A stretch of 64,000 bases of DNA from contig OY820905.2 of assembly GCA_963555755.3 (NCBI GenBank), positions 4,192,001 to 4,256,000 on the forward strand, given 5' to 3'. Both the position numbers and the translations under genes were made by a program. The notes under the pieces were generated by a model. It saw only the letters and a list, made by a program, of their open reading frames with translations, had not been told where the DNA came from and searched no databases. The stretch comes from Nitrospirales bacterium. GTDB lineage: Bacteria > Nitrospirota > Nitrospiria > Nitrospirales > UBA8639. Shown here in pieces: positions 25,014 to 61,312 of this stretch (position 1 is its first letter; every line of letters starts with the position of its first letter).

Positions 25014-26917
25014 CAGGGCCATTTCATTCTTTTTATAAGCAAGGGATTCCATGAGGTTTTTTGTGCCCTCTTTTTCAGGGCAGGGCCATGCGGATGGCTA
25101 AATGGGGCTTGCCCCAGAGCAGTCTACACGCCTGCGCGATATTGGTGTAGCCTTTCAGGCGTAAGAGACTGATGGCATAGCGTCTCAGACAGGTCATGAC
25201 CATTGGGCCATTGAGACTTCGTATCTGACTCCTGTCTTCATCAAAGGTGACGTCCAACACATAATGCTGCTTATTCTCCACACTCCAATGCTTTCGGTTT
25301 TGCGAGAGGATGGTCTTCGGCCCCGCCTTGTCTTTGGACTGACTCGTGACACCGCAGACCGCTTCGACGGTCGTGAGGCCCTGCTTGAGATGCGTCACTT
25401 CCCTCTCAATGCAGAAGACTTGCTGGACATGAGGAAAGTTGACATAGGCATTCAGGGAGTCATCGCACCAGATCCTGCGGGTCGTGATCTGCCCATGGCC
25501 TTTCTCGGTGGTGGCATAATCGCACCGGCGTGCTCGCAACGCTAAGGCCTCAATGTCGTGCTTCAAGGTGGGCTGGTTTCCCTTGACGGTGAAGACGAAG
25601 TCGGCGCCGCGTTCGTGCACCAGGTACTCGGCAATCTCTTTCTGGGTGAGGAGCGCATCCGCCGTGATCACCTTCCCTGCGATCTCGAGCGCATCTAACA
25701 GGGGCCGCACGCAGGGGATCTCATTGGTCTTGGAGTGAACTTTTTTTGGGTGAGGTGGCGCCCGGCTTGATGGGTGACGGCGCTGAGGACGTGGGTCTGT
25801 TCGCTTGGGACCTTCGACGTCCCCCGCATGGTCTTCCCATCAATGGCAATGCCCTGATCCTCCCCGCCGAAGGTGTCCAGCCACCGGCCGAGCAGGGTAT
25901 CGACTTCACAGGGGTCGACGGCCGTGATAAAGCGGTAAAGAGTGCTGCGGCTCGGGACGAGGTAGCGCCCCCCTCGCTGAGTACAGCCTAGCCGCTTGCG
26001 CATCGGCTGCGATAACTGCTGGGCCCAGTCCGAGATCGCTTCATAGCCGCGCGCGCCGCACAAGGTGGCACAGAACATGATCGCCGTGAGGGCGCGTCGG
26101 GTGTGCCGTTGCCCTTGCAAATGGCGGGGATCGGTCAGCTGCACCACATACGTAAAGAGGGAGTCCGTCTGTTTTGTATTCAATCTCATCTGAGGCGCTT
26201 CTCCTTTCTGATAGGGCTGATCAAGCATCGGGCGTGCAAGGATCTCTCGGGCTTGGGGATGCAGCCGCACGACTAGGATGCGCTTCGGTCTCTCATGCTG
26301 AACATAACACGTGTTCGACTTGCGAAACCCTCGTGTCAGACCGAGCTCGTGCCACCCGGCGGCCCGATAGCAGGTCCCGGTGAAGCGGGCAGGATCGACG
26401 AAGGTCTCTAAGAGGAGCAAGGGGTAGCCGTGGTACAGTTGCCAATCGGCCGAGATCCGTTTCGCGCAGAGCGACAGGACTTTCGAGGCGAGGTTCTTTT
26501 GCGAACAGCCCGGCAGCATGAGAAACCGGGTGTTGTTGGCCAGTAAATGGAGTCGTTGCCATTGAAAACAGGGGGGCCAGCCGATCCAGTGGTCTCGCGG
26601 TCTCGATTTGAGGGCCGCCGCCGCAAACACCAGCAAGGCCAGCCAGCGATCCTGCACACAGGCGAGATATTGTATCGATTGGCCAATCAGCGGGGCATGA
26701 CCGAGGTAGTGGTGTCTGTCGAGAAGGGTCTTGAAGGCGTCCTTTTCGTCTCGGACAATTGGGCGAACCACGACTTGCCTCAGATCAATGTCCGGCTGTC
26801 CGCTTGGCGATTCGTCTGGCATGCAAAAGAGTATGCCGTAAACGAAAAGAAAAAGCCAGCCTAAATCGATTATTCCTTATTATCTATAAAGTTACACTTT
26901 AATATGAAATAGCCCTG
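25014..26917 (-). mobile_element. ISAs1-family IS carrying DUF4338, copy 1
   Basis: TIR CAGGGC(C/T)ATTTCAT; ORF translations identical to copy 2. Confidence 0.92.
25075..26822 (-). CDS. DUF4338-ISAs1 transposase fusion, split by a -1 frameshift near 25740-25746
   Basis: ORF1: HHYLG, LANNTRFL, LLETFVD, GTCYRAAGW, then DPR..GQRH and IAIDGKTMRG; ORF2: KTNEIP, ITADAL.TQ, VKGNQ, RKHWSVEN, LDVTFDED. Confidence 0.88.
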
Positions 26918-27141
26918 GTATTGGTTGCGATTCGGAGGAAATCGCAATCATTCGTTGACAATTTTGTGTTATTGATTAATAAATACCTGAATAATGTCTA
27001 CATAGGTCTACACACTAGTGGTCTCTTCTTCTTATATGGGGGCATGGCATGGCCTCTTTTCCAGTATTGAATGGGATGAATGAACCAAAGGGACGTAATA
27101 TTTATTGGGTTTACCATTCGTGCCTGGTGAAAGGGTCATAG

Positions 27142-28200
27142 ATGAAAGGAGTTGGTTGTATGCGTAATGTGAAAGGTTCTGCAGCCCTCGTTATTGCGAC
27201 CGCAGCCATGATCATGTTCCTCACTGGGTGTGAGACCACGAAACATGCTGAAGTCATGACCGCTGAGGAATTGGCGGCCCAAGCTCAGGCCTCCGGCTCG
27301 CAGGGCTCAGGCACGGGTTCAGGCAGCGACCAAGGAGGGATTCCCCTGGCTGGCCAAGGGATGAGCGAAGGCTCCCTGTCGGTGAGTGATTCCTCAGGTA
27401 CGGTCGCTGGAACTGGGAGTTCGGCACGGTTCCCCTCAAGTATTAATCCGGAAGACCCTCCGTCTCCCACGCTTCGTGATGTGAGTGGTGCGAGCATGGG
27501 CGGGGATATTTCAGGTGGTAGCACAATAGCCGACACTAGAGCCTCCGATACAGGAATATCCGATGGAATGGAAGGCGGAACGGACAGTGATACACATGTG
27601 CCCACGGGAGAATCCATGGGGCCCAGTGGGTATGAGGGACAACAATTTGTCCGTGCACTCATACCTTCAGATTTTGTTCCGGAAAATCCTCCGCAACCTA
27701 TGTTGGGTGATGGTAGCCCATCAACCGATTCAGGCATGGGAACGAGTGGCACTTCGGGGTCTGGCGACGAAGTCGTGCGATTGCCCGATCTTGATTCTAT
27801 GGAGCCCTTAAGCCAAGGTGACTTGGATGGCTCTCAAGAAGATGGAACCAATGGAATTGGTGGCGGGGGCGGATTGGGGCATGTGTATTTTGATTTTGAC
27901 CAATACGTTATTCGAGACGATGCGGTCTCCACCTTACAAGAGAATGCGCAATTACTCAGTGCGACGTACCAAGATTCCAGCGTCCTGATCGAAGGCCATT
28001 GTGATGAACGTGGAACCACGGACTATAATCTCGTATTAGGTGAACGCCGGGCTCAGGCGGTGAAAGATTACCTGGTTAACCTAGGCGTGTCTTCTTCGCG
28101 CATCCAAATTGTGAGTTATGGTAAAGAGCGTCCGAGCTGCACAGGGTCAGAAGAATCGTGCTATCAGGAAAATCGTCGCGGCCATGTGGTGCTGCAATAG
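27142..28200 (+). CDS. Pal/OmpA-domain lipoprotein with long Ser/Gly/Asp-rich linker
   Basis: LTGC lipobox; VYFDFD..IEGHCDERGT.DYNLVLGERRA..SYGKERP..NRR. Confidence 0.9.
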   Translation: MKGVGCMRNVKGSAALVIATAAMIMFLTGCETTKHAEVMTAEELAAQAQASGSQGSGTGSGSDQGGIPLAGQGMSEGSLSVSDSSGTVAGTGSSARFPSSINPEDPPSPTLRDVSGASMGGDISGGSTIADTRASDTGISDGMEGGTDSDTHVPTGESMGPSGYEGQQFVRALIPSDFVPENPPQPMLGDGSPSTDSGMGTSGTSGSGDEVVRLPDLDSMEPLSQGDLDGSQEDGTNGIGGGGGLGHVYFDFDQYVIRDDAVSTLQENAQLLSATYQDSSVLIEGHCDERGTTDYNLVLGERRAQAVKDYLVNLGVSSSRIQIVSYGKERPSCTGSEESCYQENRRGHVVLQ

Positions 28201-28336
28201 TCGCGGAGGATAGATTCTCCCATCACACGTTTCTGACAAGAGTTCTTGCGAAATCGTAGAAAAGTGGCTTCATACTTTTTACCTTGAAAGGGTGAATGGT
28301 GTGGGGCCTTTTTTCTTGATTTTCCCCTTGTTAAAA

Positions 28337-30031
28337 ATGAATAAGCAAATCAAAACGATTGTTTTTGTCTCCTTCGAAAATGAGTTTGCTCCGCTCGGCG
28401 GGCTGGCGGCGGTGATGCGTCTGTTGCCCAAACATATGGCAGGCATGAGTGATGATCGGTGTGTTACTTTTACACCGTTTTTTCGCGAGATCACCAAGTG
28501 TAAGCCCAAGCTCATGGATTCCATTCAATCAACAGGCATCACGTTTTCTCTTGTCTATGATGGGAAGAATCATCAGGTTGAGATTTTTCAGCATCAAAGT
28601 GGCGACGGGTTTACAACCTACCTGTTCGATTCTCAGAATTTTTTTAATGCACCCTGTGATTGCGGAGATCCACCTGGTATGGAAGCTCCATGCAATCCCT
28701 ATTTGAATCCGGCGCACCCGGAGCAACTACTCGATGACTCCTTAATGTTCTCATCGGCTGTACCCAATGCCCTGGTGGCGTTAGGACTGACTCAGAATGT
28801 GGTGTTGTGTCTCCAAGACTGGGAGGCAGCGGGGGCGGCCATCGTTGCCAAGGATGATGCCCGGCTTTCTGGGATCTCCTGCTTATTAACCTTGCACAAC
28901 TCCTATGATAGGCTTGTGAGTCAAGCGGAAATGAAAAGAATGATGAATCGTGTGCTTCCTGGCCCGACGGTTCTTGCCAAAGCTGGCCCATATTTTGATG
29001 GTCCCATTTGCACGGTCTCCCAGCATTTTGCGCATGAGCTGATTCATGAACCCGTGCATCGGGACATCTTTACCCCGCATCTTCAGGCGATGTTTAAAAA
29101 ACGGACGATTCGAGGAATTAACAATGGACTGTTTAGCCAACTTGATTTTTCACCGGAAGCCCGAACCAAAACTGCTTCTGGAAATTACCATGGTCTCCTG
29201 GAAGAAAAAGCCACGCGTCGCCGGGAGATGATCCAAAAGCTGGAAGCGTATCAACCTGAGAGGGCATGGGGGTCGTTAGATTTCAACAATTTTGAAGGGC
29301 CGGTGTTTCTGTTTTTTGGTCGGGATGATCCGCGACAAAAGGGCTATGACCTTGCGGCAGCAGCTATCGACCGTATCCCACCTGGGCAGGCGAAGTTTGT
29401 CTTTACTCCGATTCCTGGAGACGAAGGGATTCAAGGGCTGCAATTTTTACAAAACCTGGCCAAGCGTCGACCGGGTGAGGTGAAGGTGTTCCCTTTTCGG
29501 ATGGAGCAAGGATACACGGAACTTCAACGTGGAGCGTCGTTCATGGTGATGTGTTCCCTCTATGAACCCTTTGGTGGGGCGACGGAAGGCTATGCTGTTG
29601 GCACGCCTGTGGTGGCAAGAGCGACCGGTGGGTTGGTTCAGCAGGTTGTGCCGTATCCTTCTGTTGCGTTGAATGCGGCAGTCCGTACTTTGAGCGATCA
29701 GTTTCATCGGCAATCAGACGCTCCAACAGGGTTCCTCTTTCGCGAGTCAGGACTTGGTGTGAAAGAGGCAGCACAAGGATGGAGCGCAATTTTGGATTGT
29801 GCCTATTGGCCTGGAGGCGACCGGTTACAAGAACGAATGCAGATTCCCTTGTTTCGTTCAATGGTCCAAGCCGCTGAAGGCGCGTTACGTCATGCTATCG
29901 AACTCTACCAAACGGATCAAACAGGCTATGCCCAAATGATAAATCAAGGCTTTCACATGTTAGACCGGTTTTCCTGGGACCAAGCCGTTCGCGAATATCA
30001 AGAAATTTTCTCCTCCCTCCCATCCGCCTAA
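28337..30031 (+). CDS. Divergent glycogen/starch synthase-like glycosyltransferase (GT5-like)
   Basis: EFAPLGGL, QDWE, TLHN, TVS..FA.E, GINNG, GR..QKG, SLYEPFG, VARATGGL, FSW. Confidence 0.75.
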   Translation: MNKQIKTIVFVSFENEFAPLGGLAAVMRLLPKHMAGMSDDRCVTFTPFFREITKCKPKLMDSIQSTGITFSLVYDGKNHQVEIFQHQSGDGFTTYLFDSQNFFNAPCDCGDPPGMEAPCNPYLNPAHPEQLLDDSLMFSSAVPNALVALGLTQNVVLCLQDWEAAGAAIVAKDDARLSGISCLLTLHNSYDRLVSQAEMKRMMNRVLPGPTVLAKAGPYFDGPICTVSQHFAHELIHEPVHRDIFTPHLQAMFKKRTIRGINNGLFSQLDFSPEARTKTASGNYHGLLEEKATRRREMIQKLEAYQPERAWGSLDFNNFEGPVFLFFGRDDPRQKGYDLAAAAIDRIPPGQAKFVFTPIPGDEGIQGLQFLQNLAKRRPGEVKVFPFRMEQGYTELQRGASFMVMCSLYEPFGGATEGYAVGTPVVARATGGLVQQVVPYPSVALNAAVRTLSDQFHRQSDAPTGFLFRESGLGVKEAAQGWSAILDCAYWPGGDRLQERMQIPLFRSMVQAAEGALRHAIELYQTDQTGYAQMINQGFHMLDRFSWDQAVREYQEIFSSLPSA

Positions 30032-30104
30032 GAGAGCTGTTGAAAAAGCAGGTCCTCAGTATCACCGAAGGGGCCACCAGCTGCGTTCCCAATTATAATA
30101 ATGG

Positions 30105-32008
30105 CAGGGCCATTTCATTCTTTTTATAAGCAAGGGATTCCATGAGGTTTTTTGTGCGCTCTTTTTCAGGGCAGGGCCATGCGGATGGCTAAATGGGGCT
30201 TGCCCCAGAGCAGTCTACACGCCTGCGCGATATTGGTGTAGCCTTTCAGGCGTAAGAGACTGATGGCATAGCGTCTCAGACAGGTCATGACCATTGGGCC
30301 ATTGAGACTTCGTATCTGACTCCTGTCTTCATCAAAGGTGACGTCCAACACATAATGCTGCTTATTCTCCACACTCCAATGCTTTCGGTTTTGCGAGAGG
30401 ATGGTCTTCGGCCCCGCCTTGTCTTTGGACTGACTCGTGACACCGCAGACCGCTTCGACGGTCGTGAGGCCCTGCTTGAGATGCGTCACTTCCCTCTCAA
30501 TGCAGAAGACTTGCTGGACATGAGGAAAGTTGACATAGGCATTCAGGGAGTCATCGCACCAGATCCTGCGGGTCGTGATCTGCCCATGGCCTTTCTCGGT
30601 GGTGGCATAATCGCACCGGCGTGCTCGCAACGCTAAGGCCTCAATGTCGTGCTTCAAGGTGGGCTGGTTTCCCTTGACGGTGAAGACGAAGTCGGCGCCG
30701 CGTTCGTGCACCAGGTACTCGGCAATCTCTTTCTGGGTGAGGAGCGCATCCGCCGTGATCACCTTCCCTGCGATCTCGAGCGCATCTAACAGGGGCCGCA
30801 CGCAGGGGATCTCATTGGTCTTGGAGTGAACTTTTTTTGGGTGAGGTGGCGCCCGGCTTGATGGGTGACGGCGCTGAGGACGTGGGTCTGTTCGCTTGGG
30901 ACCTTCGACGTCCCCCGCATGGTCTTCCCATCAATGGCAATGCCCTGATCCTCCCCGCCGAAGGTGTCCAGCCACCGGCCGAGCAGGGTATCGACTTCAC
31001 AGGGGTCGACGGCCGTGATAAAGCGGTAAAGAGTGCTGCGGCTCGGGACGAGGTAGCGCCCCCCTCGCTGAGTACAGCCTAGCCGCTTGCGCATCGGCTG
31101 CGATAACTGCTGGGCCCAGTCCGAGATCGCTTCATAGCCGCGCGCGCCGCACAAGGTGGCACAGAACATGATCGCCGTGAGGGCGCGTCGGGTGTGCCGT
31201 TGCCCTTGCAAATGGCGGGGATCGGTCAGCTGCACCACATACGTAAAGAGGGAGTCCGTCTGTTTTGTATTCAATCTCATCTGAGGCGCTTCTCCTTTCT
31301 GATAGGGCTGATCAAGCATCGGGCGTGCAAGGATCTCTCGGGCTTGGGGATGCAGCCGCACGACTAGGATGCGCTTCGGTCTCTCATGCTGAACATAACA
31401 CGTGTTCGACTTGCGAAACCCTCGTGTCAGACCGAGCTCGTGCCACCCGGCGGCCCGATAGCAGGTCCCGGTGAAGCGGGCAGGATCGACGAAGGTCTCT
31501 AAGAGGAGCAAGGGGTAGCCGTGGTACAGTTGCCAATCGGCCGAGATCCGTTTCGCGCAGAGCGACAGGACTTTCGAGGCGAGGTTCTTTTGCGAACAGC
31601 CCGGCAGCATGAGAAACCGGGTGTTGTTGGCCAGTAAATGGAGTCGTTGCCATTGAAAACAGGGGGGCCAGCCGATCCAGTGGTCTCGCGGTCTCGATTT
31701 GAGGGCCGCCGCCGCAAACACCAGCAAGGCCAGCCAGCGATCCTGCACACAGGCGAGATATTGTATCGATTGGCCAATCAGCGGGGCATGACCGAGGTAG
31801 TGGTGTCTGTCGAGAAGGGTCTTGAAGGCGTCCTTTTCGTCTCGGACAATTGGGCGAACCACGACTTGCCTCAGATCAATGTCCGGCTGTCCGCTTGGCG
31901 ATTCGTCTGGCATGCAAAAGAGTATGCCGTAAACGAAAAGAAAAAGCCAGCCTAAATCGATTATTCCTTATTATCTATAAAGTTACACTTTAATATGAAA
32001 TAGCCCTG
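30105..32008 (-). mobile_element. ISAs1-family IS carrying DUF4338, copy 2
   Basis: Repeat of copy 1 at offset 5091. Confidence 0.92.
30166..31913 (-). CDS. DUF4338-ISAs1 transposase fusion (-1 frameshift)
   Basis: Translations identical to 25075-26822. Confidence 0.88.
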
Positions 32009-32091
32009 GCCATGACGGTCCGAGGCTGGTAGAACCATGAGAGAAAAGAATAATTTGGAAAATCTTTTTCCACAGTAAGGAGGGAAATCCA

Positions 32092-32892
32092 ATGGAAACA
32101 GGTACGAATCAAAAGTTGTTCCTCATTGTCTTGCTCAGTTTGAGCGTGGTACTCACGGGATGTTCACGTCAGCTTTATACCTCGTTGGTTAGTAGTGAGG
32201 AATCGAAATCCGACGATCTATTACAAGGAGGAGAGTCGGAGCAAAGGGTGATGTCACGCAGTCCTGTTGAAGCTTCTCCACTTCCTAGGCTCAGTGATTC
32301 CAGTATCGATTCATTCTCTCCTGTCCCGCAAAACCCACAATCGGGAAGTAATACGGAATTTTCTACCTCTCAAATTCCAGAGAGTGATTCTTTCTTTTCA
32401 TCTTCGGGCGACATCATTCCACTCGATGACAAAGACTTGCTCACCGAAATAGCGGCGGCTTCAGGGACGGGCGGGTCGACAAGTCGTGAAACCGAGGCAT
32501 TCTCTTCCCGTCAAAAGGGAGGGACGTTGACACCATTGGGAGATGAGCTTTTCGATAAGGGGAATTTGGGGGATGTGTTTTTCGACTTTGATGCTGTGGC
32601 TATTCTTTCGGACGCCGCATCCACTCTTCACGCGAATGCTCAAATATTAACAGCGCGTTTGGATAATCGTCGTGTGGTCATTGAGGGGCACTGTGATGAA
32701 CGAGGAACCGCAGAATATAATCTTGTGCTGGGAGAGCGCCGAGCTCAATCGACCAAACAATACCTGGTAGATCTCGGCGTCTCGGACTCGGCCATCCAGA
32801 CGATCAGTTATGGCAAAGAAAAACCCTTTTGCACAGCCTCACACCCTGATTGCTGGCAGCTGAATAGGCGAGGTCATTTTGTTTTACAATAA
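32092..32892 (+). CDS. Second Pal/OmpA-domain lipoprotein with Ser-rich linker
   Basis: LTGC lipobox; VFFDFD..IEGHCDERGTAEYNLVLGERRA..SYGKEKP. Confidence 0.9.
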   Translation: METGTNQKLFLIVLLSLSVVLTGCSRQLYTSLVSSEESKSDDLLQGGESEQRVMSRSPVEASPLPRLSDSSIDSFSPVPQNPQSGSNTEFSTSQIPESDSFFSSSGDIIPLDDKDLLTEIAAASGTGGSTSRETEAFSSRQKGGTLTPLGDELFDKGNLGDVFFDFDAVAILSDAASTLHANAQILTARLDNRRVVIEGHCDERGTAEYNLVLGERRAQSTKQYLVDLGVSDSAIQTISYGKEKPFCTASHPDCWQLNRRGHFVLQ

Positions 32893-32959
32893 GGGCACCA
32901 ATCGCTGGAGAGGTAGAGTCGTCATAGAGAAATAAGAGAGTCCTCTCGTAGCTTCAATG

Positions 32960-33006
32960 GGCCCAACCCAGGACTGTGCCGGTTCCTGAGTTGGGCCTTT
33001 CCTTTT
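32960..33006 (+). terminator. Probable intrinsic terminator
   Basis: GGCCCAACCCAGGA..TCCTGAGTTGGGCC stem followed by TTTCCTTTT. Confidence 0.6.
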
Positions 33007-33135
33007 GAGATAGGGCATTCAACCTAGAAACGGCAGGTGGGCGTAAAAAAGACCCAAGGGTTGTTTTTCATTCTTTGGTGAGAGACTGGCGGGCTTCAAC
33101 TTTTGATAAATGGTCGTAGGCGTGCGGATGGTGTG

Positions 33136-33648
33136 TTATTCAGAATCACCTCGCATCATAAATGGATGGTTCAGAATCCACATTTCATACATGGGGACGG
33201 CAAACATCACCAGAAAACTTAATAGCATGAGGACATCGCCGGATAACATCGTGATCACAAATATTGGGGACACGTACGTGATCAACCAGGGAGATACCAA
33301 ATCCAAGGTGACCCCAAGGAAGGCGGCCCAGGTGGTGATGACTTTTAATGTGGGGCTGATCATCGTGAGGTACAACACGTGAACCATGATCATGAATACT
33401 ACTGGCATGGTGAAAATATGAAAGTGGGTGGTCTCAGCTAACTGTCCAAACGACATGGGCTCGCCGAAGTTGGCATCCGAGCCCCGATAATGTTCGACAA
33501 GGCCTTTTGGTGTGAGATCAGTCATGCTATGTGCCCAAACCAAGGTGAAGGCAAAACCCACAAACATTAAAAGAAGAAACCAGGTGTAGACCAACCGGAT
33601 GTGCCGGTCGGTATCACGGAGCCGAAACCGAGTGTTGAAATTCCGCAT
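33136..33648 (-). CDS. Integral membrane protein (about 4 TM) with membrane-associated His residues
   Basis: EHYRG, ETTHFHIF, MVHV; last gene of the porin/FMN-binding operon. Confidence 0.75.
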   Translation of the reverse strand: MRNFNTRFRLRDTDRHIRLVYTWFLLLMFVGFAFTLVWAHSMTDLTPKGLVEHYRGSDANFGEPMSFGQLAETTHFHIFTMPVVFMIMVHVLYLTMISPTLKVITTWAAFLGVTLDLVSPWLITYVSPIFVITMLSGDVLMLLSFLVMFAVPMYEMWILNHPFMMRGDSE

Positions 33649-33665
33649 TCCAAACGAATCTGATC

Positions 33666-34379
33666 TTAGAGCCCTAAGATTGATTCAATGAATCCTTTTT
33701 CCGCATGGCCAGTGGCGATGACGTTTGTGCCGAGTCCACGGGGTTTTAAATAAAATTCGTTGACCAACACCAACACCCGCTTGACCCCAGCGCTGGCTGA
33801 CCGGACCGACATCGTGGCGCCGGTAATATTAATAATGTCTCGATTGATGCCGACGGGGTCTCCAACGGTCTTTCCTTCATATTGATAATTAAATCGTTTC
33901 CTGGCGATTTCATTGCCGCGTCCTTCGCGGTACACCAGGACTTCGAAATTGATGACCTCGCCCCCAGAATCAACGGCCACCATGTAGGTAATGGGACGAT
34001 GTTTGCCGATGGTATTTTGGACTATAGCGTACCCGTCGATGTCCTCTTTGGTTTCGCCAATATAGACATCAAAAGAGGTTTCCGGAAATTTCCATCCAAT
34101 GGTTTGTTCAACCAGGGTTTTTTGTTCAGGGGTTAATGGGAGTGTTTCTCGTCGGATCGTTTCCGATTCCGGAAACATGACTTTTGCGGCTTCTTCCTCG
34201 GTAAAATAAATCTCAATGTGCCCAAGTTCTTCTTGTGTGAGCCAGCGTTTCAAATCATGGTCATAGATTTTTTCTGGAAGAGAATCCTGGGCAAACACCA
34301 AAGACGGAGCAAATCCAAGCAATATGCTACCAAGGGTAAAAATCCACACAAGTTTTTGAATTAGCTTAAAGTCGCACAT
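33666..34379 (-). CDS. Exported FMN-binding (flavinylated) protein
   Basis: Signal peptide; IGKH.PITYMV, YRE.RG.E, DIINITGATMS containing the [ST]GA[ST] flavinylation motif. Confidence 0.88.
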   Translation of the reverse strand: MCDFKLIQKLVWIFTLGSILLGFAPSLVFAQDSLPEKIYDHDLKRWLTQEELGHIEIYFTEEEAAKVMFPESETIRRETLPLTPEQKTLVEQTIGWKFPETSFDVYIGETKEDIDGYAIVQNTIGKHRPITYMVAVDSGGEVINFEVLVYREGRGNEIARKRFNYQYEGKTVGDPVGINRDIINITGATMSVRSASAGVKRVLVLVNEFYLKPRGLGTNVIATGHAEKGFIESILGL

Positions 34380-34831: not shown

Positions 34832-34840
34832 TTCTTTCGA

Positions 34841-36331: not shown

Positions 36332-36355
36332 TCGAACGATCTCCAATTGTTGTTG

Positions 36356-43030: not shown

Positions 43031-43037
43031 GCGCTCG

Positions 43038-43520
43038 CTACCTTCGACCTGTTTGGGTGTTCAGTGCACGGCCACAGTTCTTGCACTCTCCATTGGGAAG
43101 CTGAACGGGATCGCCATAGATCTCAAGTTTGTGCGTATGAATCGTGAATCCATTTTTTCGTGCCACTTCTTCCTGAAGGTCCTCAATTTGGCAGTTCTCA
43201 AATTCGATGATTTTGTCGCAGGTCGTGCAGATCAAGTGGTCATGATGCCCCTTGTGCGAGACGTTATCAAACTTGGTTTGGGAGCCGAAGTGCTGTTCCT
43301 GGGCCATTCCGGTCTCACACAAGAGCTTTAACGTTCGATACACCGTGGCCAAACCGATGTGCGGATCCTTCTTGGCGAGCATGCGATACATCTGCTCCGC
43401 TGTCACATGTTCCATTTTGAGAAACGTGGTAAGGATGTTTTCCCGTTGCCGGGTGAGTTTCAGATTGTTCTTGGTCAGGTGCTGCTTGAGAATTTCGAGT
43501 TCTTTGGTGGGTTTCGCCAT
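43038..43520 (-). CDS. fur: Fur-family transcriptional regulator
   Basis: TRQR, HVTAE, GLATVYRTL, HHDHLICxxC, C-terminal CKNC. Confidence 0.9.
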   Translation of the reverse strand: MAKPTKELEILKQHLTKNNLKLTRQRENILTTFLKMEHVTAEQMYRMLAKKDPHIGLATVYRTLKLLCETGMAQEQHFGSQTKFDNVSHKGHHDHLICTTCDKIIEFENCQIEDLQEEVARKNGFTIHTHKLEIYGDPVQLPNGECKNCGRALNTQTGRR

Positions 43521-43620
43521 TAGTGGATTCTCTTTCTCAATTGAATATCCTATTAAAACCAAAAAAAGACAACAGGGTCAAGCCAAAAATGGGAGAGGTT
43601 GTGTTGTATGTGGTTTTCCC

Positions 43621-44117
43621 TCTGTCATTTCGACCCTTGGGAGAAATCTCTCATTCGACAATGAGGGGAGATTTCTCGCTCCACTCGAAATGACAAGACC
43701 GTTGTGATCTGTCATTTCGACCCTTGGGAGAAATCTCTCGTTCGACAATGGGGGGAGATTTCTCGCTCCGCTCGAAATGACAAGACCGTTGTGATCTGTC
43801 ATTTCGACCCTTGGGAGAAATCTCTCATTCGACAATGAGGGGAGATTTCTCGCTCCGCTCGAAATGACAAGACCGTTGTGATCTGTCATTTCGACCCTTG
43901 GGAGAAATCTCTCGTTCGACAATGTGGGGGAGATTTCTCGCTCCGCTCGAAATGACAAGACCGTTGTGATCTGTCTCGACCCTTGGGAGAAATGACAAGA
44001 CCGTTGTGATCTGTCATTTCGGGGAGATCTCTCATTCGACAATGAGGGGAGATTTCTCGCTCCACTCGAAATGACAAGACCGTTGTGATGTAAGGGGTTC
44101 TCCCAAGGGTCGAAATG
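43621..44117. repeat. Tandem array of 87-bp family C hairpin units (4 full units plus degenerate ones)
   Basis: Units start at 43621, 43708, 43795, 43882; each is GTCATTTCGA..GAGAAATCTC..GAGATTTCTC..TCGAAATGAC plus a constant linker. Confidence 0.92.
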
Positions 44118-44177
44118 GCCACACAGTTGTTATGTCACGTTGTTCTTTCATTTTCTGTTTCGGTCGTGGGTCCTCGA

Positions 44178-44414
44178 GTTGGGCGCGGCGGAGCCGCATA
44201 CACGAATCGGCTTTTCGGCGAAGGTTGTTTGAGTCCATTGACAAGGCTCAGGATGGACTTCGCGATTTCCCGAGCCATCTTGACCTGTCCTGAGCGGAGT
44301 CGAAGGGTTCGGGGCGGAGGCGGAGGGACCCGGAGGGCCGCACACGGGTGAGAATGGTTTTGGGCACTTTTGCCGAAACACAAGTGTCTCGTTGCGCCGG
44401 GGCGATACCTCGCA
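44178..44414 (-). repeat. Repeat family B copy
   Basis: Similar to 16527-16764. Confidence 0.75.
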
Positions 44415-44549
44415 TGAATAAAGCCATAGAATTGGTGGGCAGTACCCACCCTACATTGATTTCTGAATTTCTTTCCTAGGCCACAATCTTCCCTTTTCTC
44501 GTTGACGCCGTTCATGGTTGCTCGTTAGGATCGCGATCTTGTCGACTTA

Positions 44550-44706
44550 GGGTTCGCGCAAGCATAACTTCCCACGTTTGGGTGCTGAGACGCCTGTCTG
44601 GCAAGGCGCGAGGACTGCGCATACTCCTCGTATGAAAAGGATGAGCAACGCCGCCAGACTGGATAGATCGACGCCCAAACATGGGAAGTTATTCTTACGC
44701 GAACCC
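44550..44706. mobile_element. MITE (family F) flanked by TTA
   Basis: Long TIR GGGTTCGCG.AAG.ATAACTTCCCA.GTTTGGG at both ends. Confidence 0.75.
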
Positions 44707-44710
44707 TTAA

Positions 44711-44851
44711 GGGCACCTCTACAAACCAGGCATTTTTTGTGAGGGCAAGGAAGCCGCGCGCGGAAAACCGGAGTGTATGGGCGAATACATGAGGATGTGA
44801 GCACGCGGCTGACGCCGCCATCACGGAAAAGGACGGTTTTTAGAGGTGCCC
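44711..44851. mobile_element. MITE (family G) with TTAA TSD
   Basis: TIR GGGCACCTCTA.AAACC / GGTTTTTAGAGGTGCCC; TTAA at 44707-44710 and 44852-44855. Confidence 0.75.
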
Positions 44852-44892
44852 TTAAGATCTTTTGCCGAAATTATAGGGCCAGGAACGAATTC

Positions 44893-45459
44893 ATGCGTAA
44901 ACCCAACGACATCACTATTGATCGGACCTTACTGATCTACGTGCTTCATTTTGCGGAGTCGAAGGAGTTTTCGATGGTCAGTGATGTGAAGCTTCAGCAG
45001 CTTGTGTTTCTTGCCGAGTTGCAAATGCTTGGAAAAGGGTTGCGTGGGTTTCATTATGAGTTTATGCGTTACCCCTATGGAGCCTTCAGCAAAGATCTCG
45101 ACAATGACCTGCTGGCCATGCGCAAGAAAGAACGGTTAGAGAATTTTGATGTGGTCGGGCAGGCGGAGGACTGTATTCCGCTTTTGGAGGAAGCCATTCC
45201 TGGCGTCGAGGCGAATGAACAGATCATGGAAATCATCCAAGCCGTGGTCGAAACCTACGGGTCCAAAGACCTTGGTGAGATTTCGAAATCTGTCGAAGAT
45301 GTGGAAATCAGCGTGGTTGATCGTCCTGAAGATAAAATAGTTATTCTCGATATTCCCTTTCACTCCATGATGTTGGTGCCTTCTCGCATCGAAGTCACTG
45401 GGGAATTTTCTTTCCTTCCCAAAACTCTCTCTCAACTGAATACGGCGCTTGGGATGTAA
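44893..45459 (+). CDS. Hypothetical protein with Panacea/SocA (DUF4065)-like N-terminus
   Basis: KLQQLVFLAE...YEFMRYPYGAFSKDL resembles KL.KL.Y....F....YGP. Confidence 0.55.
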   Translation: MRKPNDITIDRTLLIYVLHFAESKEFSMVSDVKLQQLVFLAELQMLGKGLRGFHYEFMRYPYGAFSKDLDNDLLAMRKKERLENFDVVGQAEDCIPLLEEAIPGVEANEQIMEIIQAVVETYGSKDLGEISKSVEDVEISVVDRPEDKIVILDIPFHSMMLVPSRIEVTGEFSFLPKTLSQLNTALGM

Positions 45460-45480
45460 TTCTCTTTCTGGGTTGAGGAA

Positions 45481-45511
45481 CGGGGCCGAGTAACGTGTGC
45501 ACTCAGCCCCG
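45481..45511. terminator. Hairpin between convergent genes
   Basis: CGGGGCCGAGT..ACTCAGCCCCG; no clear U-tract. Confidence 0.4.
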
Positions 45512-45536
45512 CGAAGACTCTCTGAACCGATGGGGA

Positions 45537-45857
45537 CTACTTGGATGAAGGTGATTGGGTGGCAACCCCAATCGTGATGAGTTCTTTTAGTTTGGCGAAT
45601 TTTCCTGTGTCAATGCCATTGACTTTCATCAGCTCATTGATACTCGTGAAGGGCCCAACGTCCGTTCGATAGTTGACAATGCGTTGGGCGATTTCTTTGC
45701 CAATGCCTGGCAATAGTTCAAGCTGTTTGGTCGTGGCGGTATTGAGATCGATTGTGCCCTCAGCGGCGAGCACCAGACCAGGAAAACTCAAACACAATAC
45801 GAAGGCCAACAGTCCAATGGTCATGTAAGACCGAGCAAATTGTTGAAACGGATTCAT
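45537..45857 (-). CDS. comEA: ComEA-like helix-hairpin-helix DNA-binding protein
   Basis: Signal peptide; IDLNTAT..LELLPGIG..AQRIV.YR..GPF.S..LMKVNGI. Confidence 0.88.
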   Translation of the reverse strand: MNPFQQFARSYMTIGLLAFVLCLSFPGLVLAAEGTIDLNTATTKQLELLPGIGKEIAQRIVNYRTDVGPFTSINELMKVNGIDTGKFAKLKELITIGVATQSPSSK

Positions 45858-45956
45858 ACACTTTCCCTCCTTTGAATAAGATTAAATGACCAGAAGAAAC
45901 ACTCCTGACTTTTCATGAAGCAGAATGTATGCCAGTTCGAGGCTAGAGTCAAGCCC

Positions 45957-47859
45957 CAGGGCTAATTCATATTAGAGTGTAACTTTATAGATAATAAGGA
46001 ATAATCGATTTAGGCTGGCTTTTTCTTTTCGTTTACAGCATACTCTTTTGCATGCCAGACGAATCGCCCAGCGGACAGCCGGTCATTGATCTGAGGCAAG
46101 TCGTGGTTCGCCCAATTGTCCGGGACGAGCAGGACGCCTTCAAGTCCCTCCTCGCCCGACATCACTACCTCGGGCCTGCCCCGTTGATTGGCCCCTCGAT
46201 CCAATATCTCGCCTGTGTGCAGGATCGCTGGCTGGCCTTGCTGGTGTTTGCGGCGGCGGCCCTCAAATCGAAACCGCGCGACCACTGGATCGGCTGGCCC
46301 CCCTGTTTTCACTGGCAACGCCTCCATTTACTGGCCAACAACACCCGGTTTCTCATCCTGCCGGACTGCTCGCAAAAGAACCTCGCCTCGAAAGTCCTGG
46401 CGCTCTGCGCGAAACGGATCGCGGCCGATTGGCAACTGTGCCACGGCTACCCCTTGCTCCTCTTAGAGACCTTCGTCGATCCTGCCCGCTTCACCGGGAC
46501 CTGCTATCGAGCCGCCGGGTGGCAGGAGCTCGGGCTGACACGAGGGTTTCGCAAGTCCAATACGCGGTATGTTCAGCATGACCGCCCGAAACGCATCCTG
46601 GTCAAGAGCCTCCATCCCCAAGCCCGAGAGATTCTTGCACGCCCGATGCTTGATCAGCCCTATCAGAAAGGAGAAGCGCCTCAGATGAGATTGAATACAA
46701 AACAGACGGACTCCCTCTTTACGTATGTGGTGCAGCTGACCGATCCCCGCCATTTGCAAGGGCAACGGCACACCCGACGCGCCCTCACGGCGATCATGTT
46801 CTGTGCCACCTTGTGCGGCGCGCGCGGCTATGAAGCGATCTCGGACTGGGCCCAGCAGTTATCGCAGCCGATGCGCAAGCGGCTAGGCTGTACTCAGCGA
46901 GGGGGGCGCTACCTCGTCCCGAGCCGCAGCACTCTTTACCGCTTTATCACGGCCGTCGACCCCTGTGAAGTCGATACCCTGCTCGGCCGGTGGCTGGACA
47001 CCTTCGGCGGGGAGGATCAGGGCATTGCCATTGATGGCAAGACCATGCGGGGGACTTCGAAGGTCCCGAGCGAACAGACCCATGTCCTCAGTGCCGTCAC
47101 CCATGACGAGGGGCGCCACCTCACCCAAAAAAAGTTAACTCCAAAACCAATGAGATCCCCTGCGTGCGGCCCCTGTTAGATGCGCTCGAGATCGCAGGGA
47201 AGGTGATCACGGCGGATGCGCTCCTCACCCAGAAAGAGATTGCCGAGTACCTGGTGCACGAACGCGGCGCCGACTTCGTCTTCACCGTCAAGGGAAACCA
47301 GCCCACCTTGAAGCACGACATTGAGGCCTTGGCGTTGCGAGCACGCCGGTGTGATTATGCCACCACCGAGAAAGGCCATGGGCAGATCACGACCCGCAGG
47401 ATCTGGTGCGATGACTCCCTGAATGCCTATGTCAACTTTCCTCATGTCCAGCAAGTCTTCTGCATTGAGAGGGAAGTGACGCATCTCAAGCAGGGCCTCA
47501 CGACCGTCGAAGCGGTCTGCGGTGTCACGAGTCAGTCCAAAGACAAGGCGGGGCCGAAGACCATCCTCTCGCAAAACCGAAAGCATTGGAGTGTGGAGAA
47601 TAAGCAGCATTATGTGTTGGACGTCACCTTTGATGAAGACCGGAGTCAGATCAGACGGCTCAATGGCCCGATGGTCATGACCTGTCTGAGACGCTATGCC
47701 ATCAGTCTCTTACGCGTGAAAGGCAACACCAATATCGCGCAGGCGTTTAGATGGCTCTGGGCCAAGCCGCATGTAGCCATCCGTATGGCCTTGCCCTGAA
47801 AAAGAGAGCAAAAAAACCTAATGGAACCACTTGCTTATAAAAAGAATGAAATGGCCCTG
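45957..47859 (+). mobile_element. ISAs1-family IS carrying DUF4338, diverged copy 3, no TSD
   Basis: CAGGGCTAATTCAT / ATGAAATGGCCCTG ends; flanks AGTCAAGCCC and GGGGGAGTCT differ. Confidence 0.9.
46052..47799 (+). CDS. DUF4338-ISAs1 transposase fusion, -1 frameshift at A AAA AAG (47128-47134)
   Basis: The shift joins LTQKK to VNSKTNEIPCVRPLLD. Confidence 0.88.
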
Positions 47860-47926
47860 GGGGGAGTCTTAGGTGGATACGAATGACGGCGACATAAAGT
47901 GGCCTACCCAATTGAAGAGACGAGAG

Positions 47927-48301
47927 ATGCGCAACCAGCAAGGCGTAACCCTTGTGGAAGTCATCATTGCCATGGGCCTGGTGTTCATGGCGCTCCTCGC
48001 GCTTTCCGGGTTGGCCACGGTGTCGTTGAAGGGGGCTGCCACGGCCAAACATCTCACCACGGCCACGGTATTAGCGCAAGAAAAACTCGAAGATGTGAAG
48101 CTGACCGGGTACAACCCGGATATCGTCAGTAGTGTAGAAGTAGACGAACCGTATGAATCCTTGCCAGACTTTCCTCTCTATAAACGAGTTGTAACGATTG
48201 ATCCCAACAATCCGACTATCGGCCTGCAAACCGTCACGGTGATGGTTTCGTGGGCCGACGACCGTCACGCCGTTTCACTGTCCACCATCTTGGCCGAATA
48301 A
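47927..48301 (+). CDS. Type IV minor pilin, PilV-like
   Basis: Prepilin motif QQG|VTLVEVII; LAQEKLE. Confidence 0.85.
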   Translation: MRNQQGVTLVEVIIAMGLVFMALLALSGLATVSLKGAATAKHLTTATVLAQEKLEDVKLTGYNPDIVSSVEVDEPYESLPDFPLYKRVVTIDPNNPTIGLQTVTVMVSWADDRHAVSLSTILAE

Positions 48302-48303
48302 CC

Positions 48304-48927
48304 ATGGCCGATCATTGGGGCACACTTTTTGATCAACGCGGGGTGACGTTAACCGAACTCATGGTAGCGTTGGTCATGGGATTGGCGACCGTTGCGGCAG
48401 TGTATAGCGTGCACCTGGTGCAAGTGAAGCAGCGAATCCTTCAAGAGGATGTCATGGCCATGCAACAAAATGCTCGTGCGGCCATGGATCTTATGACTCG
48501 CGAGATTCGAATGGCTGGGTATGATCCAATGGGGGTGAATCGAGATGGGAGTGACTCGAATGATTTTTCCGGGGTGGCCTACCACCCAACGGAACTTCAG
48601 ATCAAATCAGACCTTAATGGGAACGGGCTTCTCACGGATTCGAACGAATCCATCGTGTTTCTTTATGATGCCTCAACCTTGACCCTCAGACGGAAAGTCG
48701 GTCGAGGCGGGCGACAACCCCTGGCTGAACATATCCAGTCCCTTGCCCTACAATATTTCGACCAGGGTGGTGCTCCAACAATAGATTCAACAAACATTCG
48801 TATGATAGAAGTAGCACTCACTGCACAAACAGAACATGCCGATCCCCAGTATCCCAAAAATGAAGGACACCGAACCTTTACCCTGCGATCCCGAGTCACC
48901 CCAAGAAATTTAGGCTTATTGCGATGA
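48304..48927 (+). CDS. Type IV minor pilin, PilW-like
   Basis: QRG|VTLTELMV; QQNARAAMD...EIRMAGY; C-terminal PRN. Confidence 0.87.
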   Translation: MADHWGTLFDQRGVTLTELMVALVMGLATVAAVYSVHLVQVKQRILQEDVMAMQQNARAAMDLMTREIRMAGYDPMGVNRDGSDSNDFSGVAYHPTELQIKSDLNGNGLLTDSNESIVFLYDASTLTLRRKVGRGGRQPLAEHIQSLALQYFDQGGAPTIDSTNIRMIEVALTAQTEHADPQYPKNEGHRTFTLRSRVTPRNLGLLR

Positions 48928-49318
48928 AGACGGCATCGTGATCCGTGCAAGCCAACTTCTCACGCGACGTCTGGGAGTATTTGGGGCTATCCGGGCTAGC
49001 TTTCACTTGGGTCAAAAATATAAAATATGGGGTCAGACTCGAATTAATGGATGTTTCTGCTCATGTTTAGTTGGCCAAATACCTAATAAATCGAAAGGGT
49101 CAATCGCGTTTCGTCTATCACATTCTGCTTGTATTGTAGGTTTGTCCAAGCCGACCCCTACTTTCATTCCCCCGTTCAATTATCATTTTTTGGCCTGTTG
49201 TTCTTGTAAGGTCAGACTCTGCTTTGTGATTCATGGGTCGAGGTAACTACTCAGGTCAATTTTCTATAGCCTGATTTTTTTCTGGACTAACGGCTCCACC
49301 CATGGCATAATCGGGGCC

Positions 49319-50206
49319 ATGAATGAAGCGATTACATGTCAAGGTCGTCGCCTCCCCCAATCTGATCTGTGCTGGTTACGCCATCTGGTTTGCCGGCACC
49401 CTGACTGGAGCCGCCATAAAATAACCCAGCATATTTGTCGGCACTGGGGCTGGCAGACCCCGTCCGGACAACTGAAAACCTTTGCCGCCCGCAGCATGAT
49501 CGACAAACTCGAACATCGCGGGCTCCTGAAGCTGCCCCCGATTCGTGTCGCCTCTCGACGCAACATCTTCCCCCCTTTCCGAAAGGGGTTTATGCCTCCC
49601 GAAGCCCCGCACATCGACGCAGCTCTCAAGACCCTGACGCCCCTGTCCATTCATATTCCAACCTCACATTCCTACGAAGCCAGTTGTGTGGGATATTACC
49701 TGAGCCACCATCACTACCTCGGGTTCACCCGAACGGTCGGTGAACATCTCAAGTACCTGGTGCGGGATCGCTCCGGGCAGGATCTGGCCTGCCTCCTCTT
49801 CGGTTCCGCCGCCTGGAAAACCACCCCGCGCGACACCTTTATCGGCTGGGAGCCGGACACCCGAGCCGCCAACCTCAACTTCATGACCAACAATACCCGC
49901 TTTCTCATCCTGCCCTGGGTGCGTGTGCCGCATCTGGCCAGCCATCTCCTGGGCCGGGTCATGAGACGTCTCCGGCAGGACTGGATCGAGAAATACGGCC
50001 ATCCCGTCCACTTGGTGGAGACCTTTGTGGAGCGAGACCGCTTCAAAGGTATCTGCTATCAGGCCGCGAACTGGCTCTATGTCGGGCAGACCAAAGGCCG
50101 GTCCCGGCAGGACCGTGACAAGGCTCTGCGCGTGCCGGTGAAGGCAATTTATCTCTATCCCCTCATCCGCCACTTCCGACAGGCCCTCTGCCGGAGCAAG
50201 CCATGA
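49319..50206 (+). CDS. DUF4338 (DruA-like) domain protein
   Basis: HHYLG, F.SAAWK..RD.FIGW, NNTRFLILPW, LASH.L, VETFV, G.CYQAANW..VGQTKGR. Confidence 0.85.
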   Translation: MNEAITCQGRRLPQSDLCWLRHLVCRHPDWSRHKITQHICRHWGWQTPSGQLKTFAARSMIDKLEHRGLLKLPPIRVASRRNIFPPFRKGFMPPEAPHIDAALKTLTPLSIHIPTSHSYEASCVGYYLSHHHYLGFTRTVGEHLKYLVRDRSGQDLACLLFGSAAWKTTPRDTFIGWEPDTRAANLNFMTNNTRFLILPWVRVPHLASHLLGRVMRRLRQDWIEKYGHPVHLVETFVERDRFKGICYQAANWLYVGQTKGRSRQDRDKALRVPVKAIYLYPLIRHFRQALCRSKP

Positions 50207-51651
50207 CCTTCACCCGCGACGCACTCCTCATCCTGGCCAAGAGCAACCCCGAGGCGCTCGTCGAACTGATCCTGGCGCTGCAGGAACAGGGGCAGGCGCT
50301 GACCACGCATGTCACCGAACTGGCACAGCGGCTCGACCAACACAGTCGCAACAGCAGCAAACCGCCCTCGTCCGATGGACCGGCCAAGCCCCGAACCAAG
50401 AGCCTGCGCATACCTTCCGGGAAAAAGCCGGGCGGCCAACAGGGACATGCCGGCCAGACGTTAAAACAGGTGGAAACCCCAGACCACCTGGTCCACCTGC
50501 CTGTTCACTCCTGTTCCTGCCATGCCGACCTCACCAACGAGACGGTCACCGGCTATGAACGCCGGCAGCTCTTTGAACTGCCGGAGCCAAAACTCGACGT
50601 CACCGAATATCGGGGAGCAATCAAAACCTGCCCCCAATGCGGCCGCTCGGTCACGGCGTCATTTCCTGATGACCTGCCTGCGCCGGCACAGTACGGTCCC
50701 AGATTTCGCAGCCTCCTGGTCTACCTCCAGAACCAACAGTTGATCCCCTTACGCCGTGTCAGCCAGATGATGGCTGATCTGTATGGCGCCTCGGTCAGCG
50801 ACGCCACCATTGACGAGGCCTCCCGCCGAAGTTATGAGCACCTCGCGCCGTTCGAGACTGCGGTCAAAGAAGCGCTCGGCAAGAGTCCCATCCTCCATGC
50901 CGATGAAAGCGGCGTCCGCACGGCCGGGACGCTCCACTGGCTCCACAGTGCCAGCACGGCCACGTTGACCTTTTACGGTGTGCACGCCAAACGGGGAAGA
51001 GAGGCGATCGAGCAGTTCCAGATCCTCCCGGATTTTGCTGGCCGCCTGATCCACGATTTCTGGAAACCCTATCTCTCCTATGACTGTGCCCACGGCCTCT
51101 GTAACGCCCATCATTTGCGGGAACTCACGTGCCTGTTCGAGCAGCACGAACAACCATGGGCCAAACACATGTTTGACCTGTTGCTGACGATGAACGTGTT
51201 TGTCAGCAAGCAACTCGCACAGTTAACGGAAGAACAGAAAACCCCCTGGCTGAAACAATACAGGGATCTTCTCACCCTCGGATGGCAGGCCAACCCCCTT
51301 CCGGCACCGCCACAGAAAAAGTCACGAGGCCGGCCCAAAAAGACCAAGGCCCAAAATCTCCTCACCCGTCTTGGCGAGCATGAAGCCTCCGTGCTCGCGT
51401 TCCTCCATGACAGACAGGTTCCCTTCACTAATAATCTGGCAGAACAGGATATCCGCATGATCAAGCTCCGCCTCAAAATATCCGGGTGTTTTCGAACGCT
51501 TCAAGGCGCGAGGCAGTTCGCCCGCATACGAAGCTACCTTTCTACCGCGAGAAAGCAGGGCGGCAACATGCTGCAAGCCATTTCACAAGCCATGATCGGC
51601 CACCCCTTTATGCCTGCACAATTCACTACAAAGATCATCACACCTGAGTAG
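50203..51651 (+). CDS. IS66-family transposase (TnpC-like)
   Basis: SRNSSKPPSSD, KPGGQ.GH.G, CPQCG, HADESG, CNAHHLRE, FTNNLAEQDIR; ATGA overlap with DUF4338. Confidence 0.93.
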   Translation: MTFTRDALLILAKSNPEALVELILALQEQGQALTTHVTELAQRLDQHSRNSSKPPSSDGPAKPRTKSLRIPSGKKPGGQQGHAGQTLKQVETPDHLVHLPVHSCSCHADLTNETVTGYERRQLFELPEPKLDVTEYRGAIKTCPQCGRSVTASFPDDLPAPAQYGPRFRSLLVYLQNQQLIPLRRVSQMMADLYGASVSDATIDEASRRSYEHLAPFETAVKEALGKSPILHADESGVRTAGTLHWLHSASTATLTFYGVHAKRGREAIEQFQILPDFAGRLIHDFWKPYLSYDCAHGLCNAHHLRELTCLFEQHEQPWAKHMFDLLLTMNVFVSKQLAQLTEEQKTPWLKQYRDLLTLGWQANPLPAPPQKKSRGRPKKTKAQNLLTRLGEHEASVLAFLHDRQVPFTNNLAEQDIRMIKLRLKISGCFRTLQGARQFARIRSYLSTARKQGGNMLQAISQAMIGHPFMPAQFTTKIITPE

Positions 51652-51781
51652 TTACGGGTCGAGAAGGTTTTATCCCTTGAGGAATGTTTGAAGATTGGTG
51701 ACAATGCGGGCATTGAAAAATGAATAATGAAATAATGTCAGCTCACATGGTCTTGTATGATGAACGAAGGGAGTCATCCTC

Positions 51782-61294: not shown

Positions 61295-61312
61295 GATTTC
61301 ATTATTTACGAA

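Follow-up and report, generated by a model that had tools for sequence, protein, structure and literature searches.

Insertion sequences of a Nitrospirales bacterium carry a conserved accessory domain with a predicted Mom-type GNAT fold

Four insertion sequences with a DUF4338 domain

The window analysed here, a 64,000-nucleotide stretch of contig OY820905.2 from a Nitrospirales bacterium, contains four insertion sequences (IS), three copies of an ISAs1-family element and one IS66-family element, each of which encodes a protein with a PF14236 (DUF4338) domain. The elements had been noticed in an earlier sequence-only reading of the window, and their positions, their terminal repeats and the IS66 target duplication were all found. 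The features are as follows.

25004-32018, strand not assigned: composite unit of ISAs1 copies 1 and 2, bracketing 3187 bp of cargo (26918-30104)
25014-26917, minus strand: ISAs1-family element copy 1 (1904 bp), 1 base different from copy 2
25695-26822, minus strand: OrfA of copy 1, a predicted Mom-like GNAT (DUF4338) plus the ISAs1 N-terminal domain, 375 aa (PF14236 95 bits, PF13808 63 bits)
25740-25746, minus strand: A_AAA_AAG shift site of copy 1, the catalytic frame running in -1 to 25075
30105-32008, minus strand: ISAs1-family element copy 2 (OrfA 30786-31913, shift site 30831-30837, catalytic frame to 30166)
45957-47859, plus strand: ISAs1-family element copy 3, 1903 bp long, sharing ~96% identity with the other two copies and flanked by no target duplication
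46052-47179, plus strand: OrfA of copy 3, predicted GNAT domain (~aa 12-200) plus the ISAs1 N-terminal domain and first Asp motif
47128-47134, plus strand: A_AAA_AAG -1 shift site of copy 3, recoding suggested by conservation
47128-47799, plus strand: C-terminal, catalytic portion of the ISAs1 transposase, 223 codons in the -1 frame (PF01609; NF033564 137 bits)
49243-51655, plus strand: IS66-family element, 2413 bp, perfect 14-bp terminal repeats, 14 near-identical copies in the genome
49283-49311, plus strand: sigma-70-like promoter match (1 site against 0.1 expected, a match to the consensus only)
49319-50206, plus strand: 295-aa gene, predicted winged-helix-like domain (aa 1-75) plus predicted Mom-like GNAT (aa 104-292)
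50203-51651, plus strand: IS66 transposase (TnpC-type, 482 aa; NF033517, 295 bits), overlapping the upstream stop codon in ATGA

All four proteins score 92-113 bits against PF14236, for which the cut-off is 27 bits, confirming their assignment to DUF4338, and in each of them the match is confined to profile positions ~50-228 of 297. Over 166 aa the ISAs1 and IS66 versions of the domain share 40% identity (E 4e-33), and all the motifs that had been listed as shared (HHYLG, RD..IGW, NNTRFL, LAS, ETFV and G.CY.AA.W) are present in both. The ISAs1 copies end in 14-bp terminal repeats with one or two mismatches, whereas those of the IS66 element are perfect and are flanked by an 8-bp target duplication, GGGTCGAG, at 49235-49242 and 51656-51663. 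Within the IS66 element the stop codon of the 295-aa gene and the start codon of the transposase overlap in ATGA at 50203-50206, as had been noted earlier. The promoter match ends 7 bases 5' of the ATG of the 295-aa gene, which may thus be expressed from a leaderless transcript. The gene content of neither element includes an antitoxin-like gene.

Together, ISAs1 copies 1 and 2 make up a composite transposon. A single 10-bp target duplication (25004-25013 and 32009-32018) surrounds the pair, and the cargo, which consists of OmpA and glycosyltransferase genes, is 100% identical to positions 1285410-1288596 of the same genome (G000:C1). No ISAs1 element was found at that place among the genome copies listed.

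The domain had been described as fused in frame to the ISAs1 transposase, which holds for the N-terminal part of the transposase but not for its catalytic part, which sits in the -1 frame. The 375-aa OrfA covers NF033564 positions 3-120 and stops beyond the DDE_Tnp_1_assoc domain and the first of the catalytic Asp motifs; positions 129-314 of NF033564 are located in the -1 frame behind A_AAA_AAG (47128-47134). The same split is present in 36/36 full-length genome copies of the element, 35 of them otherwise intact. We collected related loci for comparison (79 in named genomes, taken from the best 80 among 566 confirmed ones, a sample biased to this lineage); the heptamer is in frame in 68 of the 73 scorable loci and is followed by a -1 continuation in 48 of 54 non-duplicate ones. 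Among the 120 homologs listed, 112 stop before the conserved NEI motif, 100 of these just after Lys-Lys, and 8 read through NEI. That the split stems from a sequencing error is ruled out by the 36/36 copies together with the 68/73 other loci. Because the site is conserved, we infer that the split frame is a recoded variant read by -1 frameshifting and not a broken gene. In E. coli, A_AAA_AAG is one of the sites most prone to shifting (PMC5009743). A search for a stimulatory hairpin downstream of it found none that was significant (z -0.55 to 1.09).

A second lineage of GNAT-bearing ISAs1 elements (L168, L169, L170, L187, L029 and L157) is split further downstream. In 6/9 loci examined the first frame ends at a Phe/Leu-Pro-Pro-type site and continues in +1; five of these six have T4-5C5-6 behind a hairpin predicted with no shuffle control, and L157 has T2C6. 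This pattern is like that described for the transcriptional slippage site of a Roseiflexus IS630 element. The two lineages have two different putative shift sites, each of which would leave a truncated product that bears the GNAT.

ISAs1 elements have short terminal repeats and ~10-bp target duplications (10 bp for IS1358), and their transposase is normally encoded in a single uninterrupted frame. The elements described here resemble this family (NF033564) in their transposase match, in short terminal repeats starting with CAGGG and in duplications of 9-11 bp, but differ from it in the additional 200-aa N-terminal GNAT and in the transposase split by a conserved -1 site. Four GNAT-less ISAs1 elements are unsplit: the first shift site is read through in one frame in all four, and three of the frames reach the transposase end. 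The resulting organisation is comparable to the OrfA-OrfAB arrangement of IS1 and IS3, which also uses a -1 shift.

Copies in the genome and distribution of the domain

PF14236 has 74 matches in this genome and none in 14 control genomes (0/14), hence its occurrence is not due to chance. Coordinates and translations place all 74 on IS, namely 45 on ISAs1, 14 on IS66, 13 on IS4 (labelled from NF033592) and 2 on IS50-type elements (labelled, for the genome's own copies, from motifs only). Of the 45 ISAs1 matches, 44 belong to the element seen in the window and one is divergent and likewise split at Lys-Lys. Target duplications flank 27/36 full ISAs1 copies (9-11 bp) and 11/13 full IS66 copies (8 bp), and most IS66 copies are identical, which argues that both elements have been active recently. 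Among 6 isoforms, pairwise ratios of nonsynonymous to synonymous substitution rates (dN/dS) ranged from 0.22 to 0.34 in the domain and from 0.09 to 0.34 in the transposase parts. The domain lies between the ends of the element, travels with it and is under purifying selection. Metatranscriptome contigs cover both elements at a per-copy depth close to the single-copy background, a level at which DNA carry-over is possible.

Three head-to-tail ISAs1 pairs occur in the genome (G000:C1 89418-93234, 987419-991234 and 1120296-1124112), the two copies being separated by their outer 10-bp duplication sequence, and one ISAs1 tandem pair sits within the GNAT gene of another copy. The pairs may point to a circular intermediate; no circle-junction joint was found among the metatranscriptome matches listed. 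Target immunity was considered for the ISAs1 element and is excluded by the insertion into the GNAT gene of another copy and by the tandem pairs. The IS4-family element with the same domain has a single 780-aa frame (G000:C1 3276800-3279400 and at least 10 other copies) and lies in G-rich, often palindromic targets with ~10-bp duplications. In the IS50-type GNAT fusions (G000:C1 21347-23330 and 999280-1001256) an A8 run precedes the last part, which is in the -1 frame, and a copy of the IS66-GNAT element is inserted precisely into the A8 run of one of them.

A search of 1.84 billion representatives returned 7,997 clusters (50% identity); of 36 longer representatives scanned, 24 have a transposase-type domain, which added IS630-like forms. 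Within the phylum, the domain matches in 39/301 genomes. We analysed the 30 best loci, one per genome, comprising 5 full-length DruA-like and 25 short-type loci. Transposase linkage was found for 21/25 short-type loci: 19 have a Pfam transposase in the same or next frame (7 IS66, 7 IS50, 3 IS701 and 2 IS4, one of them from this genome) and in two an IS66 or ISAs1 transposase was recognised on inspection. The association of DUF4338 with transposases is thus not sporadic, which supports the transposition-linked role suggested in the sequence-only reading, for which DNA marking or protection had been named there as candidate functions. The remaining four (L009, L010, L013 and L014) are stand-alone genes of related genomes. 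As they are nested in an IS66 clade, these copies have likely been domesticated.

In a domain tree of 61 rows (11 of the initial 72 were dropped because they lack the anchor motif), ISAs1 (99/92), IS50 (100/98) and IS4 (99/93) domains each form one clade, as do those of IS701 with weaker values (97/77). The stand-alone copies nest among IS66 domains of the downstream type, and those of the upstream type do not form one clade. In the reverse test, starting from transposases, the domain was present at 9/16 ISAs1 loci and 9/30 IS66 loci, several of the negatives being cut-short loci. Independent capture by two IS types, as had been proposed, does not fit these data; the sequences instead point to an old IS-resident family, shared by at least six transposase types and mostly with one clade per type. 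The module appears long-resident but accessory, and since relatives without the domain exist, it is dispensable for transposition in these families.

The IS66 element belongs with single-gene IS66 elements, which we take to be the ISBst12-like group, in having GTAA terminal repeats, 8-bp duplications and a TnpC-type transposase. It differs from them by the translationally coupled GNAT gene upstream of the transposase; other IS66 lineages carry the gene downstream. The gene occupies the place of TnpA and TnpB in classical three-gene IS66 elements, as had been pointed out, yet it is not a replacement for them: the window element has two genes only, and its relatives L209 and L210, whose terminal repeats closely match its own, are 1725 bp long and have a single gene, with neither TnpA nor TnpB, so that the 295-aa gene is an addition to a single-gene lineage.

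The Pfam name of the family is DruA, and full-length DruA matches the IS-borne domain with a profile probability of 97% (E 1.6e-11). Both could suggest that the IS carry a mobile piece of the Druantia anti-phage system as a defence passenger, an idea of the earlier reading that we now consider highly improbable. Only the core of the profile is matched, and the PADLOC DruA model gives 17 bits for the IS66 protein and no match for the ISAs1 and IS4 forms, compared with 384 bits for the full-length DruA of L001. The genome, which is 99% complete, has no match to the DUF1998 helicase (PF09369, DruE), and the sole partner gene inside the element ends is the transposase, with no druB-D. All 74 matches are in IS, whereas no transposase match was found in the 1.5-kb flanks of the five full-length DruA loci. 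Druantia type I DruA (PDLC00002) has a homologous core and shares the RD..IGW and Tyr motifs with the IS forms, but is ~400 aa long, matches the whole profile, lacks the HY, Ser and ETFV motifs and belongs with Druantia partners that the IS forms do not have. The HY motif and Ser are missing from all five full-length DruA proteins and Arg from 3/5. At L004:1-2490, a full-length DruA-like gene adjoins a sacsin-domain gene matching PADLOC TmtA (Tiamat), with a TdeIII-type nuclease nearby.

Predicted fold, resemblance to Mom and proposed role

DUF4338 has been called a GNAT before (PMC10853773), and the sequence-only reading had seen a likeness to Mom of phage Mu, a Gly-tRNA-dependent adenine-N6 modifier (PMC13219725). 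Our results support both. The AlphaFold model of the 295-aa protein (pLDDT 82) contains a GNAT domain at residues 104-292, and a fold search against 48,161 solved chains returned Mu Mom (8bv8) first (Z 12.9, root-mean-square deviation 3.5, 166 aligned residues), all top matches being GNATs. In a viral structure library an annotated Mom ranked third; the best viral match there was an uncharacterised protein of the giant virus Faunusvirus (BFVD A0A3G4ZXG3, E 2e-9). The ISAs1 domain, 40% identical to the modelled one, would share the fold. At the level of profiles, PHROG 1384 (Mom-like) was the only match among 38,880 PHROGs for three IS-borne domains (E 8e-5 to 1e-3) and did not match full-length DruA. 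The Mom Pfam model (PF25680) has 6 matches in 201 genomes, two of them over the cut-off, and all six places are DUF4338 loci (five on the same strand as the DUF4338 matches, the sixth being G170:C284); relatives L026, P0226 and a G170 locus just exceed the cut-off. We therefore describe the domain as having a predicted Mom-type GNAT fold.

The profile alignment places H132/Y133, R194, S208, E238 and Y247 of the IS66-encoded protein opposite H58/Y59, R111, S124, D149 and Y159 of Mom; W48 and W181 of Mom have no clear counterpart in it. Structure and mutation assign these six residues to the Mom active site, and a change at any of them (H58, Y59, R111, S124, D149 or Y159) abolishes or strongly reduces activity (PMC13219725); R111 is not general to GNATs (PMC7261163). 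The residues are near-invariant, occurring in 114 (H), 99 (Y), 115 (R), 111 (S), 106 (D/E) and 112 (Y) of 115 diverse homologs, a count that is weakened by the choice of these homologs by similarity to the query, and in 120-121 of 121 ISAs1 forms each. Like Mom, the domain has a basic surface, with a net charge of ~+15. It differs from Mom (~13-20% identity) in an extra RD..IGW segment, which it has in common with DruA, in its N-terminal winged-helix-like domain or transposase fusion, and in being carried by IS and not as a late gene of a phage. The N-terminal 75 residues are common to the IS66, IS4 and IS50 forms and absent from the short ISAs1 form; weak matches (Z ~5) suggest that they are winged-helix-like, and an Atlas search with them returned unnamed clusters only. 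Searching solved structures by sequence, with the IS66-type alignment as query, gave 0 matches, and the predicted complex of the 295-aa protein with TnpC scored 0.00, which speaks neither for nor against an interaction.

A charge of this size and the fusions to transposases would also be compatible with a non-catalytic adaptor that binds nucleic acid for end synapsis or target choice, for which the inactive methyltransferase domains of eukaryotic DIRS1 elements offer a precedent (PMC4738411). We find this very unlikely, as the putative catalytic residues are near-invariant across elements with unrelated transposases, and no strong common target sequence was found among 26 ISAs1 and 11 IS66 duplications.

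We propose, by analogy with Mom, that this conserved accessory IS module uses a charged tRNA as donor to acylate DNA adenines at the element or close to it, a reading to which we give an even chance. The enzyme would transfer the aminoacyl group of the charged tRNA to an adenine. Lacking the DNA-binding insertion of Mom, it would reach DNA through its own winged-helix-like domain in the IS66, IS4 and IS50 forms and through the end-binding domain of the transposase in the short ISAs1 form. In ISAs1 the unshifted OrfA, which joins the enzyme to the end-binding domain and has an incomplete catalytic triad, would be the main product and the frameshifted transposase a minor one, so that the enzyme would be in excess at the element ends. 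The mark would tune the access of transposase or promoter to the ends, in the way Dam methylation tunes access in IS10 and IS50, and it might also shield the element from restriction.

Several observations weigh against this proposal. The lead of Mom over ordinary GNATs is less than 1 Z unit (12.9 against 12.1), Foldseek on the PDB puts SpeG-type acetyltransferases first, with Mom not among the matches listed, and the probabilities of the profile-profile alignments with Mom are low, at 22% and 42% (E 1e-3 to 3e-4). The window proteins do not match the Mom Pfam model PF25680, nor does any other protein of the genome. The counterpart of Mom R151 is an Arg three, not two, residues past the acid, in 90/115 homologs, and the helix-turn-helix insertion of Mom (residues 175-209) is absent, a short Gly/Arg loop being found instead. 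Deletion of this insertion abolishes Mom activity, and the same paper warns that substrates are not predictable from the fold (PMC13219725). The high copy numbers (~44, ~14 and ~13) and the insertion into the GNAT gene of another copy argue against strong self-repression or target immunity. In a tree of 15 IS66 transposases the gene is scattered, with 5 changes compared with a shuffled mean of 4.3, five of the gene-negative rows having too little upstream DNA.

The enzyme could instead act on a protein or RNA, such as the transposase, a host factor or a charged tRNA, and thereby regulate transposition or slow growth. Most structural neighbours are indeed protein or small-molecule acetyltransferases 1-2 Z units from Mom, the DNA-binding insertion of Mom is missing, GNATs also act on tRNA (PMC13219725) and a DUF4338-DndF fusion has been read as a possible protein-targeting effector by Rakesh et al. 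2024 (PMC10853773). We regard such a substrate as quite unlikely: the conserved residues are the Mom-specific set, Mom is the only family match beyond DUF4338, and an antitoxin-like gene is found inside neither element.

It is also conceivable that Mom-type chemistry is not confined to the element, and that wide adenine modification confers general restriction resistance on IS-bearing DNA in horizontal transfer. Restriction evasion is the known role of Mom (PMC13219725), the IS66 elements encode the enzyme separately and with a predicted DNA-binding domain of its own, the gene has been gained and lost among IS66 lineages, and four related genomes keep it as a stand-alone gene nested in an IS66 clade. 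Moreover, an E. coli with Druantia type I, which has no methylase domain, gave a PacBio 'm6A' call at CAGCTGNC (bioRxiv 2024.04.14.589459), a sequence that fits the SASNY consensus of Mom; DruA may be the writer of this adenine mark. The repeated fusions to transposases, in turn, indicate local action, overexpressed Mom is toxic (PMC7261163) yet the genome carries 74 copies, and neither the HY motif nor Ser occurs in the five full-length DruA proteins, as noted above. Relatives of the IS66 protein were found in 2/72,556 PLSDB plasmids and 0/50,697 phage records, collections that are biased to cultured hosts. Weighing these points, we consider diffuse modification unlikely. SASNY sites in the target duplications numbered 3 against 8.3 expected for ISAs1 and 1 against 2.5 for IS66, in a small and uncontrolled sample.

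Our preferred reading, a modification of adenines at or near the element, has a stronger form, which we advance tentatively and hold to be possible though rather doubtful. In it the module would be a tRNA-dependent DNA 'writer' encoded by many IS of environmental bacteria, whose amino-acid-derived mark on adenines at the ends is an epigenetic switch, common to at least six transposase types and dosed by programmed frameshifting; it would be kin to a DruA that may itself write the adenine mark seen with Druantia.

Surroundings of the elements and wider meaning

Other features of the window were recorded alongside. ISAs1 copy 3 and the IS66 element flank type IV minor pilin genes (47873-54598, with a PilX-type gene at 53285), followed at 54849-62899 by a cluster of ATP-citrate lyase, aconitase and flavoprotein genes typical of the reductive tricarboxylic acid cycle; ~19 perfect copies of a 7-bp unit lie directly 3' of a flavoprotein gene (62897-63029). 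At 17648-20664 a TPR-repeat gene with repeats of 126 bp, bordered on both sides by inverted repeats of 166 bp, apparently interrupts a DUF2278 gene; the inverted repeat has ~130 genome matches. An IS1595-family element with a 781-bp tandem partial duplication occupies 20706-22594 and has 38 long genome matches, and a 73-bp palindromic REP-like repeat is found at 16400-16472 and 43621-44094, in an array with an 87-bp period.

Mom-like proteins have reportedly been linked to diverse bacterial transposase families by Iyer et al. in 2009 (Cell Cycle 8:1698), who are also reported to suggest DNA modification by transposable elements. These proteins very probably belong to the same family as the domain described here, and the core idea of a Mom-like enzyme on transposons has thus probably been predicted in print. 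The work is cited in PMC7824862, which also has a remark on bacterial momylation systems. The main text of the Mom paper (PMC13219725) mentions neither transposases nor DruA, and no paper on DUF4338 with transposases or on recoding in ISAs1 was among those that the literature searches listed.

The domain is a real, widespread and conserved accessory module of IS that has wrongly been given the label of a defence gene. In databases these IS genes go under the name 'Druantia DruA', so that counts of defence systems can be inflated, as in this genome with its 74 matches and no DUF1998 helicase, and the conserved frameshift means that annotators will read active ISAs1 elements as broken. The chemistry of Mom was solved in 2026, and an assay for adenine modification therefore exists. 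Should the proposed role hold, an epigenetic enzyme would be encoded by bacterial elements as simple as insertion sequences, and chromosomes of environmental bacteria (~8,000 clusters) would commonly bear a base modification that is known from phages only.

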